Under the pieces are notes generated by a model. The model had not been told where the DNA came from, did not search any database, and saw only the letters and a list, made by a program, of their open reading frames with translations. DNA of 64,000 nucleotides from an uncultured Pseudomonadales bacterium (lineage in GTDB: Bacteria; Patescibacteriota; Microgenomatia; UBA1400; UBA12028): assembly GCA_964492495.1 (NCBI GenBank), contig CAZBKJ010000001.1, forward strand, positions 2,251-66,250, in the 5' to 3' direction. Of the stretch, positions 22,590 through 52,919 are shown in pieces; the first letter of the stretch is position 1; every line of letters begins with the position of its first letter. Made by a program: the position numbers and the translations under genes.

Positions 22590-22750
22590 AGGCAAGGTTC
22601 AAGGTTTCAGAGCTTCTCGACTGCGGCTAGCTGGGCTAGCCTGCGCTCGAAGAATAAAAACTATATTTCGGTGGACAGGTAGTTTACAGAACGACAGCGG
22701 GGACAAGGTATCAGAGGTAGGGTACAACGGACTAGGAACGAGTTACGAGT
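22563..22750 (+). repeat. dispersed intergenic repeat, copy A (GA-rich degenerate units + core cttctcgactgcg-GGCTAGC-tgg-GCTAGCC-tgcgctcgaagaataaaa)
   Basis: Shares its core, the GA-rich gaggcaagg / gtatcagaggt units and the stop-codon context GGAGAGTAAAGG with copy B at 39125-39420. Confidence 0.7.
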
Positions 22751-22753
22751 AAT

Positions 22754-23563
22754 TTGATACAAGAAGATAGCTGGATTCCCATATTCATGGGAATGACTGT
22801 GATACAAGTGTATACTTCATTTATGTCCAGTAACATTCGTATTCTCCTTTTAATTCTCTTACTAGTTGGTTCTGCTTTTTTTAATTTTCACCAATATAAC
22901 ACAATTCAAAATCTCCAAAGTAAAAATCTACAACTTTTCAAGGAAAGAGATGGTTTGCAGGCTCAGCTCAAAGAACTTCAAAAAAACTATCAGCTCGTTT
23001 TTGAAGATAGAGCAGAGTTTATAGAGCCAAATTCTCCAGAGGAAACGTTCTCATTTCAAACGTTTGGAATTAACTCTCCACTTTTTGAAACAAAAAAAGT
23101 TGAATCACAGGAATATTTATACCGAGGAAAAACAATTATTCGAAAAACTATTTATTTAGATTCAAAGAGTGATTCCGTCTATTCATATGGGGTAAGCGTC
23201 TGGCAGTTCCCAGATACAAAAAAAGATTTTGATCCCTTATATCTTTCCATCTTTGATGGGTATGAAAATAGAGGAAACCCTCATCGTATCTCTGATGTTA
23301 TTGCGGAAGCGGCAGGGAAATATGTAACAAAAAACAACATCCAACTACATTGGTCCGTAGATACAAGCGACCTATATTCAACAAAACTAATAAATTTCAA
23401 CGGTATTTCTTTGTATGCAACAGATAATTCTGTTATTTTAGACGGACCTATATTTTACCGAGTCTTTGCATCACTGCATGTAGAAGAAGAGAATCTTCAT
23501 TCAGTCTCGAAAATTGCTACAAAAGAATTGATGAGAATTGCGGACACTATTACGTTTCGATAA
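22754..23563 (+). CDS. hypothetical membrane-anchored protein
   Basis: 269 aa; N-terminal TM (IRILLLILLLVG), then a coiled-coil region; AT-rich. Confidence 0.4.
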   Translation: MIQEDSWIPIFMGMTVIQVYTSFMSSNIRILLLILLLVGSAFFNFHQYNTIQNLQSKNLQLFKERDGLQAQLKELQKNYQLVFEDRAEFIEPNSPEETFSFQTFGINSPLFETKKVESQEYLYRGKTIIRKTIYLDSKSDSVYSYGVSVWQFPDTKKDFDPLYLSIFDGYENRGNPHRISDVIAEAAGKYVTKNNIQLHWSVDTSDLYSTKLINFNGISLYATDNSVILDGPIFYRVFASLHVEEENLHSVSKIATKELMRIADTITFR

Positions 23564-36207: not shown

Positions 36208-38832
36208 TTAAGCCACCAATGCGAGCTTCACCACTTCATCCATGTGATCGACAAAGTGTGGCGTAATATCTTTTTTGATATTCTCTGGCATTTTTGCCCA
36301 ATCTTTTGCGTTGGGTTTTGGAGCAATGATCGTACGGATCCCTGCACGGTGAGCTGCGATCACTTTTTCTTTTAGTCCTCCAATTTCAAGCACTCGTCCA
36401 CGAAGTGTTACTTCTCCAGTCATCGCGATATCATGGCGAACTGCTTTTCCAGTAAGAGCTGAGAGAACAGCAATTGTCATGGTGATTCCAGCACTAGGAC
36501 CATCTTTTGGTACGGCACCTTCTGGAACGTGGATGTGAATCTCACTTTTTTTCAGAATCTCATCGGACACTTTGAGTTTCTTTGCATTTGCCTGCACGTA
36601 GGTTAAAGCGGCTCTGGCTGACTCTTGCATGACTTTCCCAAGTTTTCCAGTCAAAATAAGATTGCCACCTTTTCGGTTCGGGATGATTGCGACTTCAACT
36701 GGGAGTGTTTCTCCGCCGACACTTGTCCACGCCATTCCGGTTGCAAGACCTATGCTGTCTTCTTTTTCCATTGACGTATCTTCGTAAATATAAGGACCCA
36801 AGAATTCCACAACTGCTTTTTCATCAACTGTGACGACAGTCTTTTTCCCTTCAGCAATAATTCGAGCAATTTTTCTACATACTTTACTGATATATCGCTC
36901 AAGACCTCTGACTCCTGCTTCTCGTGTGTAGTGACTGATGATCGAGCGAAGTACGTCATCACTGATCTTTACCTGTTTGTCAGTCAATGCATTAAACCCA
37001 ATTTGTTTTGGGAGTAGGTATCTCTTGGCAATTTCAAATTTCTCATCCATCGTATAGCCTGAGTAGCTAATAATTTCGAGACGATCACGAAGAGCGGGAG
37101 GAATCGTATCCAGGACGTTTGCGGTTGTAATAAACATGACCTGAGAGAGATCGAATGGAACGTCGAGGTAGTGATCTTCAAATCCATGGTTTTGTTCTGG
37201 GTCTAAAGCCTCAAGAAGTGCTGCAGATGGATCACCTCGATAATCAAGACCGATCTTGTCTACTTCATCAAGCATAAAGACAGGATTGAGTTTGCCAGCC
37301 TGTTTCATTCCACTGATGATGCGTCCAGGCATGGATCCCACATAGGTACGTCTGTGACCTCGAATTTCCGCTTCATCACGAATACCACCCAACGAGACTT
37401 TGACGAATTCTCGACCCAAAGCCTTGGCTATGGATTTCCCAAGGGAGGTTTTTCCAACACCAGGAGCACCAACAAAACACAAGATTGTTGGCATGTGATT
37501 TCTTTCATGCTTGGTAGGTGTCTTTGATTTGCCTTTGAGCTTATCAAGTTTTTTCTGCACACTGGCAGAAACTGATCCTGAGGATTTTTGTTCCTGATCC
37601 TGTCGAAGTTTCAAAACAGCTAAGTGCTCAAGGATACGATCTTTGACTTCCTCTAGTCCATAGTGATCACTATCCAAAATTTCTTTAGCTTTTTCTAGAG
37701 AAAACATCTTCTTACTCATTTTTCCCCACGGAAGTTCGACCAAGGTATCAAGCCAAGTTCGCACATAGCCACTTTCTGATGACATCTCAGGCATGGCAAT
37801 GAGTCGGCGAAGTTCCTTTAAGGCTTTTTTCTTGATCTCTGCAGGCATGGCGCTTCGCTGAATTGTTTTTCGAAGACTATCGAGTTCTTGTTCTTCTTCA
37901 TCTTCGTCAGAAATATCTCCCAGTTCTCGTTGGATAATTCGCATGCGTTCACGCAAAATATTTTCCTTGGCATGCTTATCAAATTTTTTCTGTGTTTTTG
38001 AGGTGATATTCTTTTCGATTTCTAAAACTTTGATTTCTTCTTCTAGATAGATCAACACGGACTGCAGTCTTTTTTGCACATCACGTTCTTCCAAGAGTGC
38101 TTGTTTTTTCTTGCTAGGTAAATCAAGGGTAGATGCGATTTGATCAGCAAGCTCAGACGGGTTGACTCCGCCCATGAGTTTCATGAAGTTTAGAAACTCC
38201 ACTGGTTTTCCTAAGTTTACGGCTTTTCGAAATTGTGTCGTTAAGATTTTGCACATCGCAGACACTTCTGCATTCTCGATAATGACATCTTCGATCGGTT
38301 CGATCTCACACTCGCTGTAACTTTCTTCAACAAATACTTTTTTAATTTTCACTCGGGTAATTGCATGGACGAGCGCGTTGAGTTCGTGTTCTCCTTTTAA
38401 GATTCGCTCAATCGATGCGATGACACCTGTCTCATAGAGGTCTTTTTGTTCAGGATCATTGGAGTTATCACGTCGTTGTGTTACTAAAACCACATTCTTT
38501 CGTGTGCGAATGGCTTCTTCGATTGCGTTGACTGATTTTGTGCGGGCAAACGCAAGAATATTTTCTGTGTGAGGAAACACAACACCTTCACGTAGTGGAA
38601 CTAATGGAAGTTTGTTGACGGGAATTTCTATTGTGGGAACACTTGGAAGTGTATTTTCTTTTTCTGGTGCTTCTTCCTTAGACGATACAGTTTCCTTTAC
38701 AGAAACTTCATCTTTTTTTACTGGTTTTTTCCCAGAAAAAATGACATTTTCGTCGTTTGAATTGGATGAATCTTTAGGGTCTGACATAGGTTTTGGCAGT
38801 TTATATTTTCGAGTGCTAAAAGTCAATCGCAA
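36208..38832 (-). CDS. lon: ATP-dependent Lon protease
   Basis: LON N-domain, AAA+ Walker [16 protein letters not shown], and a protease domain with catalytic Ser ([21 protein letters not shown]). The start may instead be the downstream MSDPKD (38787). Confidence 0.95.
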
Positions 38833-38889
38833 AATACAGGGAAAAACGTGAGCTTTGGGTAATATATCCTTTACATTCTCTCTTTATTC

Positions 38890-39150
38890 GTGTTTACTTT
38901 TTCTATGTTCCATACAATAGGCGAAAAGGTAGAGGTGGCTGGTGTCTATGCCAAAGGGTATTTTACCCCAAAAAAGCTCAAGTGGGGAACAAAAATCCTT
39001 CAAATAGAGAAAGTTACCCTGGTTTCTGAGATTCGAGATGGAGATACAAAGAAGAGAATCTACTCCTTTACCTCTGGAAAAGAGCTCTACAGGCTGTTAT
39101 TTGACCGAGAAACGGAAGTTTGGGTATTAGAAGAGTTGTGGGTGGAGTAA
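38890..39150 (+). CDS. hypothetical small protein
   Basis: 86 aa. The last ~8 codons and the stop lie inside repeat copy B. Confidence 0.35.
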   Translation: MFTFSMFHTIGEKVEVAGVYAKGYFTPKKLKWGTKILQIEKVTLVSEIRDGDTKKRIYSFTSGKELYRLLFDRETEVWVLEELWVE

Positions 39151-39420
39151 GGGAGAGAAAGAGGCAAGGGGTCAGAGGCAAGGGGCGAGGTATCAGAGGT
39201 CAGGGGCAAGGAGTCGGGAGATAGCAGGGGCAAGAGGTCAGAGGTCAGGTATCAGGGACGAGGCAAGTTTGTCGTTTATCGAAAGCTAGCAAGAACAGAT
39301 CTTCTCGACTACGGCCAGCTACGCTAGCCTTCGCTCAGGATGACAAACGGAGGGCTTCTCGACTGCGCTCGAAGAATAAAAGGGAAATTGCCTCAACGGC
39401 AAACTTGAGTAGTCGAAGAA
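39125..39420 (+). repeat. dispersed intergenic repeat, copy B (GA-rich degenerate ~14-nt units x6, one full core with hairpin, one core with the hairpin deleted)
   Basis: gtcagaggcaagggg / gtcaggggcaagga / gtcagaggtcaggt units; cttctcgactacggccagctacgctagccttcgctc and cttctcgactgcgctcgaagaataaaag. Confidence 0.7.
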
Positions 39421-39493
39421 AAAAGTGGGAGATTAGTAGATTAGGACAAACAAACGGGAGAGACGTAAGAGATCAGAAAAAAGAACAATTTCT

Positions 39494-40720
39494 ATGCAAA
39501 AGATTTTTTTTCATGTGGATATCAATGCGTACTTTGCGACCATGCTTCAGCAGGAAAATCCGGCCTTACGAGGAAAACCTGTGGGGGTGGTAAAAGCAGA
39601 AGGACGAACCTGTATCATCGCCTCTTCCAATGAAGCAAAAAAATTTGGAATCGCAACAGGATCGCTCGTCAAAGATGCCAGGAAACTCGCTCCTGATCTA
39701 GTGTTAATCCCAGCGAACTTTGACATCATGCTGTCTGCGACTCGAAAATTGAAAAAGATTTTTGAAGAGTTTTCACCTAGTGTGCATGTATTCTCACTGG
39801 ATGAAGTATTTTTAGATCTTACTGGCTGTGAAGCAATCATGGGAGTGCCGCTCACCTATGCTGACACGATTCAAAAACGGATCAAAGAAGTGTTGGGTGA
39901 GTGGGTGAAGTGTAATGTGGGAATTTCTCACAACAAATTACTTGCAAAAATGGCGAGTGAAATCGCCCCAAAAGGAACTGCTCTCACTATTGATGCATCA
40001 AATGTTACTGAAGTTTTATCCACGGTTGAGTTTAAGGATGTCTGTGGAATAGGAAGGGGCTTGTCAAAAAAACTACACTACTTAGGAGTTCATCACCCAA
40101 TAGAGATTAATTTGCTTGATGACAAAACTCTACACGATACCTTTGGTCCACATTGGGCAGTGGAACTCAAAAAAATTGCACGAGGGGAAGAAACACATTT
40201 GTTTACGCATGAGAAAGAAGTGACGTACCAACAATCAGTCGGGCGAACCATCACGGGGTGGAAGCTCTGTGATGATGAAGAACAGATCCAACGAGTTCTT
40301 CTCAATTTACTGGAAGAAGCGACACACAAGCTTCGGGCTATGGATTTGGTGGGACGAAAAGTAGGTGTATCTTTGTGGGGACATGACAGACATTGGGGAG
40401 AATATCGAACTTTGCAGTATTGGGTACGACATACCGATGAAATTTGGAAACTCCTCTATGATGGGATGTATAAAAAATGGAGACGAGACTTTCCGGTTAT
40501 CAAATTTGGTGTGTGGATTGGGGAGTGTAAACCAACTTCAGTAAGTCCTCAGTGTTTTCTGCCAGAATGGGAAAAGAGAGAAAAGATCTATGGTATAGTT
40601 GATAGTATTAATGATAAGTTTGGATCATTTACGCTCTATCCAGCAAAGCTATTAGGAGCCCCAATTATCAAGCCGGAAGTGACAGGATATTTGGGAGATA
40701 GAGTATATTTAGGGTTATAA
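39494..40720 (+). CDS. dinB: Y-family DNA polymerase (DinB/Pol IV-like)
   Basis: FFHVDINAYFATMLQQENPALRGKPVGVV...SLDEVFLDLTG (catalytic D..D/E motifs of ImpB/UmuC). Confidence 0.8.
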   Translation: MQKIFFHVDINAYFATMLQQENPALRGKPVGVVKAEGRTCIIASSNEAKKFGIATGSLVKDARKLAPDLVLIPANFDIMLSATRKLKKIFEEFSPSVHVFSLDEVFLDLTGCEAIMGVPLTYADTIQKRIKEVLGEWVKCNVGISHNKLLAKMASEIAPKGTALTIDASNVTEVLSTVEFKDVCGIGRGLSKKLHYLGVHHPIEINLLDDKTLHDTFGPHWAVELKKIARGEETHLFTHEKEVTYQQSVGRTITGWKLCDDEEQIQRVLLNLLEEATHKLRAMDLVGRKVGVSLWGHDRHWGEYRTLQYWVRHTDEIWKLLYDGMYKKWRRDFPVIKFGVWIGECKPTSVSPQCFLPEWEKREKIYGIVDSINDKFGSFTLYPAKLLGAPIIKPEVTGYLGDRVYLGL

Positions 40721-40725
40721 AAAAT

Positions 40726-41424
40726 ATGGCAGAAAAACAAGTTACAGAAAAACAACCTGACCGAACAGTAGTAGGAAGGCTTGTTAACTTCTTTAGACCA
40801 TCCAGGAGAGGACAAGGGCCTGCTCATTTGGAAAATGAACTGACCATATATGAACGATGGCAAAAAATGAATGCTAAAGCTATTGATGCTTCCACACCTT
40901 CCAAACAAGAAGAGGTGATTTTACCTGAGGAAAATGAAGAGCTGCAAAAAATTAAAATGTTGTCACTAGATGACCTTAGAACATTAGATGCCGAAACATT
41001 ACAGGAATATGCGTATCTGTTAGAAAAGGAAATGCAATATTTTAGATCGATGACAGAGTCACAACGAGAGTATGTTATTGATAAATTCAAAAAAAATCGT
41101 ATGTATGTAGAGATGATTAAAACGGCACTAGATGGTTTACAACCAGAGAAAAAAGAAAATAAATATTCGGAAACAGTTGATTCTCTTCTTGCTGGGGTCT
41201 CAACAGTTGTTGAGAAATATGCAAATAAAACGGAAAATGAAATGCAAGCTATTGCATCTGGGAATCTTAGTAGATTTAAGGATGAAATAAAACTCTTAAG
41301 AGAGATAAGATCTACTCTTCATGAGTTAACGCGAAACAAAATTCCGTATCAAAGGGAGTCAATAAAAAATTTGAGAAGAACTGTAGAAAAAATGGAAGAA
41401 ATTGTGCGTTTTATTGAGAGATAA
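40726..41424 (+). CDS. hypothetical alpha-helical protein
   Basis: 232 aa; AT-rich; coiled-coil-like composition. Confidence 0.4.
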   Translation: MAEKQVTEKQPDRTVVGRLVNFFRPSRRGQGPAHLENELTIYERWQKMNAKAIDASTPSKQEEVILPEENEELQKIKMLSLDDLRTLDAETLQEYAYLLEKEMQYFRSMTESQREYVIDKFKKNRMYVEMIKTALDGLQPEKKENKYSETVDSLLAGVSTVVEKYANKTENEMQAIASGNLSRFKDEIKLLREIRSTLHELTRNKIPYQRESIKNLRRTVEKMEEIVRFIER

Positions 41425-41454
41425 TGCACTCAGATATGAGATTCAAACTTTCCT

Positions 41455-42267
41455 ATGTATGAACAATCGACACCAGATCAAACGTTGGAAGTTGATAATA
41501 CCCGAAAAGGGTATGAGTCTTTCTTTGACAAAATAGATTTTAGCAAGGAATTTCCAAAGCAGGAGTATAGAGGTACATTGGAGAGTGCAATTGACGCTTT
41601 ATCAGAGGAGCTAAAGGCAGATCAACCTGATGTGGCGAGTCTTATTTTGTATCCGCCTCGATTAATGAGAGCAATTATTGATACGAGAGTAGAGTTTCCA
41701 GAGGATGAAGGTTTAATAGATCTCTATTACAAGACGCTTTTAATAATAACTTCGGTATATTCATCGGATGCAAAATCACTTAAATTACTTGGAGATTTTA
41801 GGCGACAATTGCAAGAACAACCTTCTCTACTTAAAAGAGAAATTCAACAGAAAAAAGATGCAGCAAGTTGGTATGCTGGCGAACCAGAAAATGCAGAACG
41901 AGCTGTAGGTCAACTTGAAACATTGACAGGAGGAACGGATATCGTATTTTTACCATTAGCTCACGGAGGTGTTGCAACTGGGTATGATATTTTTCTTCGT
42001 TACATTCAAAATACGTCTTCTATAAATTCTGTTGCTTTTCCTATACGGTTTTCAAGAAATAAGATGAAGGATGAAGAACCACAAGTTGATGAGGAACTAA
42101 AGGATATGATCGGAAAATTCTGTGATGGAAGAACTGTCGTGATTTATGAAGAGGATACGGTTACAGAAAAAACAATTTTATCAGCTGAGGCTTTTTTCAA
42201 AAAAAACTTTCCAGATGCAAAAATCGTTAAATTAAGCAGTTCGGATTCCATTAATTGGAGTTGGTAA
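41455..42267 (+). CDS. hypothetical protein with PRTase-like C-terminal half (weak)
   Basis: GGTDIVFLPLAHGGVATGYDIFLRY and GRTVVIYEEDTVTEKTI resemble the two type-I phosphoribosyltransferase motifs, but the PRPP loop is degenerate (TEKT instead of TGGT). Confidence 0.35.
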   Translation: MYEQSTPDQTLEVDNTRKGYESFFDKIDFSKEFPKQEYRGTLESAIDALSEELKADQPDVASLILYPPRLMRAIIDTRVEFPEDEGLIDLYYKTLLIITSVYSSDAKSLKLLGDFRRQLQEQPSLLKREIQQKKDAASWYAGEPENAERAVGQLETLTGGTDIVFLPLAHGGVATGYDIFLRYIQNTSSINSVAFPIRFSRNKMKDEEPQVDEELKDMIGKFCDGRTVVIYEEDTVTEKTILSAEAFFKKNFPDAKIVKLSSSDSINWSW

Positions 42268-42311
42268 GATATCTAAAATTTTGCATATTATATTTTTTAT
42301 AAGGAGAAAAT

Positions 42312-42725
42312 ATGAGCAACGAGTTAACAGCAGAACAACAACTTCTACAAAAAACAGGGGCTTCAAATGTTGAAGCTGTTCGTGAAGGAATGCATGCTGA
42401 TATAGCAGAAGAATATGTAGGAGAAATAGCTTTAGAACAAGGTTTGGGAAAAGAAGGATACACAAGATTAAATAAGCTACGAAAGAGTATAAATACTCTT
42501 TCTTTTATAGATTTGACAAGTACTCTTGATCAAATGTTCAATGACATTGAAGGCTCCAGTTTGGGTTCAAAGGGAAAAGCTGATGCTTTATTGGCAGTAG
42601 GAGAAGTTGTGAAAAATGCAAAGGCATCGTGGGCTACAGAGTACAGAGAGGATGTTCAAAGAATTCAGGATACGTTACAACAAAAAATCTTTGAATTATC
42701 TGTACCAAAGGTAGACAGAGATTAA
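42312..42725 (+). CDS. hypothetical protein
   Basis: 137 aa; RBS aaggag 7 nt upstream. Confidence 0.4.
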   Translation: MSNELTAEQQLLQKTGASNVEAVREGMHADIAEEYVGEIALEQGLGKEGYTRLNKLRKSINTLSFIDLTSTLDQMFNDIEGSSLGSKGKADALLAVGEVVKNAKASWATEYREDVQRIQDTLQQKIFELSVPKVDRD

Positions 42726-52079: not shown

Positions 52080-52085
52080 CACCTG

Positions 52086-52158
52086 TGACCCCACCCGAAT
52101 TCGAATCGGGGTTACCAGGATGAGAACCTGGTGTCCTAGGCCTCTAGACGATGGGGCC
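52086..52158 (-). tRNA. tRNA-Glu (anticodon CUC), 73 nt, CCA not encoded
   Basis: Reverse complement reads GGCCCCA-TC-GTC-TAGAGGCCTAG-GAC-A-CCAGG-TTCTCAT-CCTGG-TAAC-CCCGA-TTCGAAT-TCGGG-TGGGGTC-A. This gives a 7-bp acceptor stem (one GU), a 3-bp D stem as in bacterial tRNA-Glu, and a TTCGAAT T-loop. Confidence 0.85.
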
Positions 52159-52419
52159 ATGCGCCATTTTTTCTAAATGGTCCGTAAGCATGATCTTTAC
52201 AGCTCTTTTACCTTTTGTAGTTTTTAAGTAATTTTCTCTTCTTCTCGCATCTTTCTCTGAAAGAAACGCTTCGTAGAATATGAGTCGGACAGTACCCATT
52301 CTTTTTGTTGAATACACACCTTTACTGAGATGCTTACGGATTCTTTCTTTTAAGTTTGCCGTAAATCCTGTGTATATTTTCCCAGTATCTCTACTTTGTA
52401 AGAGATATACGTAATACAT
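52144..52419 (-). CDS. GIY-YIG nuclease superfamily protein (small, UPF0213-like); its last ~5 codons overlap the 5' end of tRNA-Glu
   Basis: YYVYLLQSRDTGKIYTGFTANLKERIRKH (GIY...YIG). The ATG is at 52419; the ORF track uses TTG at 52425. Confidence 0.7.
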   Translation of the reverse strand: MYYVYLLQSRDTGKIYTGFTANLKERIRKHLSKGVYSTKRMGTVRLIFYEAFLSEKDARRRENYLKTTKGKRAVKIMLTDHLEKMAHGPIV

Positions 52420-52488
52420 TAGCAATACTCTATCATGAACCAGAATAAATTCGATTCATGACCATGAACCGTGCTTTGCACTGGTTCA

Positions 52489-52625
52489 CGGGACGATGGG
52501 GCCAAGCTGAGCTTGGCTATACTTGCGCTTAGCGCAAGTGCCTCTTCAAACCAATACTAATCCGAGCTTAGCTCGGGTGCCAAACTGATGACTATCTTAC
52601 TTACGCTGGGCGCAAGTGCCTCTAT
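52489..52625. repeat. array of short perfect hairpins plus repeats: tRNA-Glu 5'-end fragment copy (gacgatggggcc), three 7-bp-stem/3-nt-loop hairpins (52501-17, 52522-38, 52562-76), and a 14-mer gcgcaagtgcctct x2
   Basis: Read directly from the sequence between the two GIY-YIG genes. Confidence 0.6.
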
Positions 52626-52628
52626 TAA

Positions 52629-52919
52629 TCATGTATTGTACTTGAGTTTTTCAAAAATATGTCTTAACTGTATCTTTAGCTCTTTTTTTCCTTTACCACC
52701 TTTTAGATAAGTTTCTCTCTGCTTTGCGTCACTTTGTTCGACATACGCTTCGTAATATATGAGGACAAGTGGTCTTCTATACTTTGTGGCACTTACGAAT
52801 CCGTTTACATGAGCTTTATATCGAGATTTCAAATCGTGCGTAAAACCCGTATAAAGTTGCTTGTCTTTTCCTGAATACAAGATGTACATGTAATACATTT
52901 GTACATTTAATTTTATCAC
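52629..52919 (-). CDS. GIY-YIG nuclease superfamily protein (second tandem copy)
   Basis: MYYMYILYSGKDKQLYTGFTHDLKSRYKAH; the true start is probably MYYMYIL (52895). Confidence 0.7.
   Translation of the reverse strand: MIKLNVQMYYMYILYSGKDKQLYTGFTHDLKSRYKAHVNGFVSATKYRRPLVLIYYEAYVEQSDAKQRETYLKGGKGKKELKIQLRHIFEKLKYNT

Follow-up and report, generated by a model that had tools for sequence, protein, structure and literature searches.

Families of repetitive extragenic palindromes (REPs) are usually confined to a single species or genus. GTAG-tagged REPs, BIMEs and REPINs are mobilised by RAYT/TnpA-REP (PMC3116915, PMC2817692, PMC6006769), each REP family being paired with its own RAYT gene (PMC6006769). 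CGTC-tagged REPs, which include dRS3 of Neisseria and RPE-4/6 of Rickettsia, occur in several phyla and have no dedicated transposase; their stems are 8-9 bp long and start with A-T, their loops are 4-5 nt long and they end in a CCA tail (PMC3733652). Tandem heptamers of the STRR/G-rich type include GGGGA(C/T)T in Nostoc and GGGAATC in Xanthomonas (PMC4692102). The subject of this analysis is a block of short repeats upstream of a dinB-type gene, encoding a Y-family DNA polymerase, in a 64,000-nt stretch of contig CAZBKJ010000001.1 (assembly GCA_964492495.1; this whole stretch is referred to below as the window).

The block is probably a cluster of non-coding repeats that is composite in make-up and serves no dedicated function; in it, STRR-like heptamers are joined to a decayed inverted doublet, a hairpin-less module and fragments of a REP/REPIN-like family. 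It occupies the 343-nt spacer (39151-39493) between a small plus strand ORF and dinB (Table 1). The spacer begins, directly after the stop codon of the small ORF, with an array that is 78% purine. Autocorrelation of this array peaks at lag 7 (z=5.5), with further peaks at lags 14 (4.4), 21 (3.6) and 28 (2.6); because these are harmonics of the lag-7 peak, the unit is a heptamer and a 14-mer is its second harmonic. The GA-rich minisatellite described in the initial annotation is therefore real, but it consists of about 16 heptamers and not of six 14-nt units. Its start had been placed at 39125, which is too early, as 39125-39150 still belong to the upstream ORF and make up its final 26 nt. The heptamers contain one 3-nt phase slip. 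Tandem Repeats Finder (TRF) reports the array only as fragments of period 21 or 7, and pattern scans agree.

The array is followed by an inverted doublet made up of a degenerate minus strand module and core B1. An outer 7-bp inverted repeat, GTTTGTC/GACAAAC (39267-39273, 39342-39348), is paired in the predicted fold of this doublet. B1 has the imperfect hairpin that had been attributed to it (6/7 pairs, one C.A mismatch). Its left arm is CTTCTCGAC, its right arm (GCTCAGGATGACA) comes from another subfamily, and there is no complementarity between the arms, CTTC and AGGA; a position weight matrix (PWM) gives a strong left half and no right half. B1 would thus be either chimeric or decayed. The next core, B2, had been described as lacking exactly the hairpin, and comparison with a second locus in the window, copy A (core 22613-22659), agrees with this. 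B2 is identical to copy A at 27/27 frame positions and is shorter by exactly 20 nt, which comprise the 15-nt palindrome GCTAGC-TGG-GCTAGC and one of the two 5-nt direct repeats, CTGCG, on either side of it. As a direct repeat around a palindrome is a classical slippage substrate, it would explain the difference between copy A and B2. The module tail after the core is AATAAAA. In the window as a whole, CTTCTCGACTRCG has three exact occurrences and, at up to two mismatches, six matches (1.3 expected; 0/100 shuffles reach six). In a PWM scan of the 64 kb, every strong half-site (three left, two right) fell at the copy A or B locus.

At the copy A locus, about 980 nt separate an HtrA-like gene from an RF1-like gene that are 6-8 nt apart in three relatives. 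The extra DNA (22590-23563) is thus again an insertion specific to the lineage and consists of the copy A repeat block and an ORF (ATG at 22824, stop at 23563), which has no Pfam match and encodes an N-terminal hydrophobic segment. Copy A is 100% identical in L142, a Logan contig from the independent sample SRR12762304. A further hairpin, AGTC-ATTCCCAT-GAAT-ATGGGAAT-CCA (22772-22798, minus strand), lies 112 nt downstream of copy A. It has an 8-bp stem starting AT, a 4-nt loop and a CCA tail, and no other hairpin of this kind occurs in the window.

Contigs of relatives keep the gene order found here, with lon on the opposite strand upstream of the small ORF (which encodes 81 amino acids [aa]), followed by dinB. 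The distance from the stop codon of the small ORF to the ATG of dinB is -13/-12 nt in four contigs from three relatives (L115, L116 and L138/L139; overlap ATGGnnnGAnTAA), +44 in L140, +89 in L114, +93 in L137, +87 in L141 and +343 in the window. In L114 and L137 the spacer is made up of inverted arrays of 8-nt units. Judged from sequence, the stop/start overlap in the relatives indicates translational coupling of the small ORF and dinB, and the block in the window is a lineage-specific insertion or expansion at a junction that was ancestrally an overlap. L141, a contig of JGI metagenome 3300038404 reached via an exact copy of the 81-aa protein, is nearly identical to the window (96% DNA identity). 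It is collinear with the window at 36931-39211 and 39467-40721 and lacks the segment between (39212 to about 39468), cores included. Its spacer consists of 87 nt of uninterrupted heptamers (about 9-10 units), as compared with about 16 units plus the tail units in the window; the proximal nine array units are common to both and the distal eight are absent from L141. Both breakpoints of the indel lie in heptamer-like units (CAAGGAGTCGG / TAAGAGATCAG), the right one in the tail units upstream of dinB, and the presence of such units at both ends would explain the indel of about 255-259 nt. The initial annotation had staked its reading on length variation and additional copies: the first is found in L141, and the second in copy A and, as described below, in many other genomes.

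Table 1. Features of the dinB-proximal repeat block, its flanking genes and the copy A locus (positions are those of the window)
Feature	Position	Strand	Remarks
Small ORF, 81 aa	38905-39150	+	Stop codon 39148-39150; upstream partner of dinB; outside the repeat, defines the junction that the repeat occupies
Degenerate heptamer array	39151-39268	+	About 16 units G-Y-M-A-G-R-G; purine-rich strand is the sense strand
Segment absent from L141	39212-39470		Includes the cores; 255 nt by blastn, 259 nt by MAFFT; end ambiguous (39466-39470)
Degenerate inverted module	39267-39296	-	GTTTGTC GTTTATCGAAA GCTAGC AAGAAC; left half of inverted doublet with B1
Core B1	39301-39348	+	CTTCTCGAC TACG GCCAGC-TAC-GCTAGC CTTC GCTCAGGATGACAAAC
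Core B2, short hairpin-less module	39355-39382	+	CTTCTCGACTGCGCTCGAAGAATAAAAG, i.e. CTTC-TCGAC-TGC-GCTC-GAAG-AATAAAAG
Small hairpin and module remnant	39388-39421	unassigned	TTGCC-TCAAC-GGCAA, then degenerate reverse-oriented module remnant (TTGAGTAGTCGAAGAA)
Purine-rich tail and dinB leader	39422-39493	+	Heptamer-like units GGGAGAG ACGTAAG AGATCAG, then leader common to L141
Y-family DNA polymerase (DinB-like) gene	39494-40720	+	Pfam IMS (2.3e-39), IMS_C (2.2e-8)
Copy A	22590-22659	+	Three heptamer units, then intact module with perfect 7-bp hairpin (core 22613-22659)
Heptamer-like units near copy A	22696-22745	+	Downstream of copy A; same family by repeat-family search; 87% blast match to the L141 array

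The cores are members of a family that extends far beyond the window. An exact-pattern scan of one genome per species (596 Gb) with CTTCTCGACTRCG-N(0-25)-CTCGAAGAA gave at least 113 loci in at least about 60 assemblies, against a chance expectation of about 3.5 over all gap lengths (our own estimate, which assumes uniform base composition). Six matches were discounted as chance: five fall within GC-rich DNA that seems to be coding (Nitrobacter, Clostridia, Alistipes, Nanopelagicales and Pelagibacterium), and in the sixth (Methanophagales) the gap is of odd length and family features are lacking. With these set aside, the family is found in at least about 54 assemblies with a wide taxonomic spread. 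Among the matches listed, the hosts are many Patescibacteria lineages, four Omnitrophota metagenome-assembled genomes (MAGs), Bacteroidota including cultured Tenacibaculum and Polaribacter, sphingomonads (Sphingomonadales), gammaproteobacterial MAGs, two cultured species of Gordonia and others. In one of the Omnitrophota MAGs the module copies number in the dozens, and an exact 22-mer of B2 recurs in many phyla. The same doublet is present, unannotated, between convergent genes of a complete Sphingobium replicon. BLAST searches of phage and plasmid sequences found the 22-mer in this replicon only, plus one chance phage match, and the core has 0 matches in 2.9 million viral contigs, so carriage by phages is unsupported. 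A metagenome search with the window-specific hairpin (GCYAGC..GCTAGCC) returned 20 matches, all unrelated chance ones in high-GC DNA. Full-text search with the motif string in several forms found it in none of the papers searched, and the motif strings are absent from the Di Nocera paper on CGTC-REPs and its supplements (PMC3733652). In Gordonia spumicola and G. malaquae (L013, L029, L043, L104 and L109), the right half (GACTGCGCTCGAAGAACC) also occurs in tandem arrays of about 20-24-nt units just downstream of the full 22-mer, with at least one copy after a tRNA gene.

A module has the form S(4-5 nt)-TCGAC-X-GCTC-S', then AATA(T/A)(T/A), with the tail GAAGAATA; a conserved 12-nt core (TCGACTNCGCTC) is enclosed by an outer stem of 4-5 bp. 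(Family-wide figures here and below are drawn from the listed loci, L001-L113.) With complementarity of S and S' included, this grammar has 273 occurrences in 0.9 Mb of listed loci as compared with 0-2 in shuffles. The outer stem covaries, although complementarity was not required: in loci found with a CTTC/GAAG query, GTTC/GAAC occurs 10 times, TCCC/GGGA seven, CCCC/GGGG five and TCCT/AGGA three. The slot X is 3 nt long, as in B2, in 107 of the 273 members. Elsewhere it is filled by CTNCG pentamers in tandem (two or three), by a hairpin with CTNCG or CTCG on its flanks, or by a complete nested module in either orientation. Among 60 unique inserts of 14-30 nt, 42% have a perfect stem of at least 5 bp (2.6% of shuffles), and the insert hairpins represent at least 15 unrelated stem sequences. 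Some are flipped within an identical frame (GTCCCGA-TACT-TCGGGAC with loop -TACT- or -AGTA-; GTGCC-TTC-GGCAC versus GGCAC-TTC-GTGCC). The hairpin had been proposed to be an excisable or recombinogenic module; its separability is borne out by the insert-free members, the diversity of stems, the flips and the nesting, but active excision is not supported. The flanking pentamers differ at the N position in most other members, so a clean target-site duplication is unsupported as well. A stable mini-hairpin with a GNA triloop, formed by the GAGCGNAGTCGAG strand, remains speculative, its nearest-neighbour folding energy (-1.8 to -2.3 kcal/mol) not being lower than that of shuffled sequences.

Family members are mostly intergenic, modular and prone to form doublets. 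Of the modules, 72% are located outside crude ORFs, even though such ORFs make up 86% of the DNA. Two neighbouring modules are inverted relative to each other in 72/93 pairs, 50 of them in the -+ arrangement; the commonest arrangement has the conserved AATATTSTTCGAGC ends outward. Heptamer arrays are not enriched near strict modules (9/113 within 150 nt, 7.8 expected), and their linkage to modules at both window loci is therefore specific to the window genome.

The modules resemble REPs, BIMEs and REPINs in being 20-50-nt imperfect palindromes that are strongly intergenic and variable in copy number between close relatives, in forming inverted doublets able to fold into a larger hairpin and in clustering with other short motifs. 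Copy A is predicted to form a stem-loop, B1 and B2 count as decayed or half units, and inverted dimers are found in the family and, in degenerate form, at 39267-39348. Unlike REPs, the modules do not have an unpaired terminal GTAG tag (GTAG/GCAG/GGAG/GAAG is central in the frame), and no RAYT-like gene was found near them by a crude motif search of the loci and the window. They also have the exact 22-mer common across phyla and the central slot of variable or nested hairpins. With CGTC REPs the modules have in common a spread over several phyla and the lack of a known transposase; the minus strand of B1 reads TGTC-AT-CCTGAGCG, which involves the foreign right arm of B1 only, and the hairpin downstream of copy A is near-canonical for the CGTC-1 type (PMC3733652). 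The modules themselves differ in having 4-5-bp outer stems around the 12-nt core. The heptamer array shares with STRR a 7-nt period, a G-rich strand, non-coding placement and a unit number that varies between relatives (PMC4692102). However, its unit, GYMAGRG, is highly degenerate, the array is interrupted by hairpin modules and there is no canonical four-G-tract quadruplex spacing.

No match to the 12-nt centre, 4-5-bp outer stem and hairpin slot is found among the families compared by their published descriptions. MIRUs are 40-100-bp tandem units at intergenic junctions inside operons, where their small ORFs preserve translational coupling. The dinB block also occupies an intergenic junction within an operon, but no coupling ORF runs through it. 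The small dispersed repeats of cyanobacteria attributed to Elhai et al. (2008, Genome Res 18:1484) are reportedly about 21-27 nt long, mobile, in some cases hairpin-forming, capable of nesting in other repeats and found in heptamer-rich genomes. They have other sequences and another host phylum, and the likeness is a lead and not a test.

The mechanism proposed for the composite cluster is the following. Modules would be propagated as DNA, the most likely form being single-stranded hairpins acted on by an enzyme whose gene lies elsewhere. Once in place, they would decay and be remodelled by replication slippage or by recombination between short direct repeats. B2 may have arisen from an A-like copy by CTGCG slippage across the palindrome or, conversely, copy A may have gained a hairpin in the standard slot. 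The difference from L141 would have arisen by recombination between heptamer units. In its present form dinB would still be co-transcribed with the upstream ORF; it would have lost translational coupling to it and gained a long purine-rich, partly structured leader. An effect of the block on dinB expression is plausible. Neither a promoter nor a plus strand intrinsic terminator was found in the B block (nor was a plus strand terminator found at the copy A locus), and the region folds no better than shuffles; the effect is therefore probably passive, consisting of uncoupled translation and a longer purine-rich leader, with no dedicated regulator. For the window genome the import is modest: a variable block would have broken the coupling of a conserved small gene and a Y-family polymerase. 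Two alleles, with 87-nt and 343-nt spacers, appear to coexist, which would amount to a natural experiment on how DinB is expressed in an uncultured bacterium of the Microgenomates type.

Several observations weigh against this interpretation. L141 is a noisy assembly with 54 indels of up to 7 nt, the 259-nt gap being the sole large one, and because of this error rate the large indel is probable rather than certain. This indel takes in heptamers together with modules and could equally be a deletion, and no clean pair of filled and empty sites with a target duplication was seen. The 64-kb window has three modules at two loci and 55 kb from relatives has none, so that high copy number is unproven here. 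No mobilising enzyme was found: a transposase is absent from the 18 window ORFs scanned with Pfam, a crude regular expression for the HUH...Y motifs matched no ORF in the window or in about 0.96 Mb of loci, and all-vs-all clustering of flanking ORFs gave no recurrent enzyme, only housekeeping families and a four-helix-bundle gene in four loci. Conservation of an exact 22-mer across phyla is unusual for REPs and hints at some constraint. Finally, lone modules between co-directional genes are opposed to transcription in 25 cases and along it in seven (p=0.002), which is not expected of purely neutral double-stranded junk. This bias could reflect a replication-strand preference. Clustered modules show no orientation bias, and all three window modules are along transcription.

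A bolder reading, which is possible but distinctly speculative, is that the TCGAC...GCTC module is an undescribed pan-bacterial "hairpin-in-hairpin" DNA element, whose slot acquires, loses, flips and nests palindromes. If so, the frame would be recognised by some widely conserved, hitherto undescribed activity specific for single strands or hairpins; the bias of lone copies might result from a replication-strand preference, and the dinB copy would be a decayed footprint. The dinB copy itself is ordinary and degenerate; the cross-phylum family is the interesting part. It is unlike lineage-specific, RAYT-tied REPs in that a 22-nt frame is found in distant phyla with no associated gene in about 1 Mb of flanks. 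If the family holds up, the question of which conserved machinery makes or maintains the hairpins becomes testable, and a common source of spurious small ORFs and of contig breaks in MAGs would be explained.

The composite repeat cluster has better support than each of its rivals, which are a regulatory RNA, a TA-duplicating transposable element, a purely local origin, a quadruplex repeat and an assembly artefact. Among these rivals, a miniature inverted-repeat transposable element (MITE) fares best, though it is unlikely. The inverted doublet (about 95-130 bp, with ends AATATTSTTCGAGC...GCTCGAASAATATT) would be moved by a TA-duplicating DDE transposase, and B2-like single modules would be solo ends. 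The family has ends resembling terminal inverted repeats, the right-end consensus CTnCGCTCGAAGAATAtt has an invariant TA after GAAGAA, -+ doublets dominate, the doublets of the Omnitrophota MAG have TA on both sides and contigs often end at the repeats, all of which a MITE would account for. No related transposase gene was seen in the loci or the window, however, and no empty site was recovered; single modules have no 5' TA, and variable, nested central hairpins are not a MITE feature.

It is improbable that the block was selected to adjust DinB synthesis as a structured RNA acting in cis within the small-ORF/dinB transcript, for instance by stabilising the mRNA, as a processing site or as a translational attenuator. 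The structure prediction called for in the initial annotation separates the two loci. Copy A folds better than shuffles on either strand (z -2.6 to -3.3), the value of about -2.6 being in favour of a structured RNA. In contrast, the whole B region (z +1.5, as RNA), B1 (z +1.2, as DNA) and B2 (z about +1.1, as RNA) do not. Nor does the doublet at 39267-39348 taken as a whole (z -0.63), and the pairing of the 39388-39421 hairpin with B2 in the predicted fold is not significant (z -1.0); this hairpin is terminator-like on the minus strand, with a score at chance level. The three window modules and the purine-rich strand are on the sense strand of co-directional genes, and similar G-rich heptamer arrays are transcribed in Xanthomonas (PMC4692102). 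The orientation bias of lone family members relative to genes might also suggest a role in RNA, but it is opposite to the orientation of the window modules. At the gathering threshold, Rfam matched only tRNAs in the 64-kb window and 20 module-rich loci, and at E<=10 it matched nothing relevant over 38800-39550. The absence of a promoter and a plus strand terminator argues in the same direction, and the relatives and L141 keep dinB without the block.

Somewhat less probable still is a local origin, in which polymerase slippage or template switching made heptamers and palindromes de novo and no DNA moved between sites. The junction holds different short tandem arrays in different relatives, and slippage has been proposed as the cause of heptamer excess (PMC4692102). 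In a TRF census of the module-bearing genomes, period-7 arrays are the commonest tandem class (113/528), with a different unit sequence each time. This explanation could account for the heptamers but not for the cores: two loci that lie 16.7 kb from each other have an identical 27-nt frame, and an exact 22-mer in dozens of unrelated genomes is incompatible with independent local invention. A regulatory role of the heptamer array as a former of G-quadruplexes, in the manner of GGGNATC or GGGGA(C/T)T, is very improbable. The placement of the array agrees with that described for such repeats (PMC4692102), and it has four GGGG runs (39169-39172, 39183-39186, 39203-39206 and 39227-39230). These are separated by gaps of 10, 16 and 20 nt and not by the 7 nt or less of a quadruplex, the units are degenerate, and not even the canonical repeats could be assigned a function (PMC4692102). 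Least credible of all is an artefact in the assembly of the window, either a chimeric join or a repeat assembled wrongly: repeats do break assemblies (L142 ends inside the 22772-22798 hairpin) and the block is absent from L141, but copy A recurs base for base in an independent sample, the B modules fit a family defined from unrelated genomes and both flanks are collinear with L141 and the relatives.

The small ORF and the Y-family polymerase gene, between which the initial annotation had placed the block, are both conserved. Orthologues of the 81-aa protein are 63-69% identical, apart from one copy that is 100% identical. The protein has no Pfam match at threshold, and three of seven orthologues have a weak sub-threshold match to DUF6504; it may be an accessory factor of the polymerase. 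The closest homologues of DinB are 73-75% identical (best 75%) and are from Woesebacteria/Microgenomates-type MAGs. A look-up of the exact DinB protein returned no entry, and a DinB-guided protein scan of metagenome contigs returned no relatives. Directly 3' of dinB is an AT-rich island (40726-42725; GC about 0.36 versus about 0.42) with three ORFs that have no credible Pfam match, that at 42312-42725 having a sub-threshold match only. Relatives have other, shorter ORFs at this position, and thus both sides of dinB are variable. In the 5' region of lon, an inverted element, TTGGCAGTT-N9-GAGTGCTAA (about 38793-38819), is conserved in all related loci. It is CIRCE-like, its right half being a perfect match to the consensus (TTAGCACTC-N9-GAGTGCTAA), and its conservation suggests HrcA-type heat-shock control of lon.

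Inverted tandem arrays of 7-8-nt units also flank an ORF in three unrelated genomes (L112 2448-2729, L078 1734-2006 and L051 4881-5198). From inspection by eye, this ORF presumably encodes a four-helix bundle of the 23S rRNA intervening sequence (IVS) protein kind. A similar but gene-free inverted array pair is found exactly at the small-ORF/dinB junction in L114 (9912-10000) and L137 (685-777), which suggests that heptamer arrays are linked to a small mobile gene cassette.

Two stand-alone genes with a GIY-YIG nuclease domain lie on the minus strand of the window (52144-52425 and 52629-52919), adjoining a tRNA-Glu gene (region 52085-52919). GIY-YIG genes were considered as partners of the modules and rejected, since a homologue is found in only 1/113 loci. 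A 12-nt copy of the tRNA 5' end (GACGATGGGGCC) is present on either side of the first gene (52147-52158 and 52492-52503), and GC-rich hairpin repeats (52520-52545 and 52598-52623) are located between the two.

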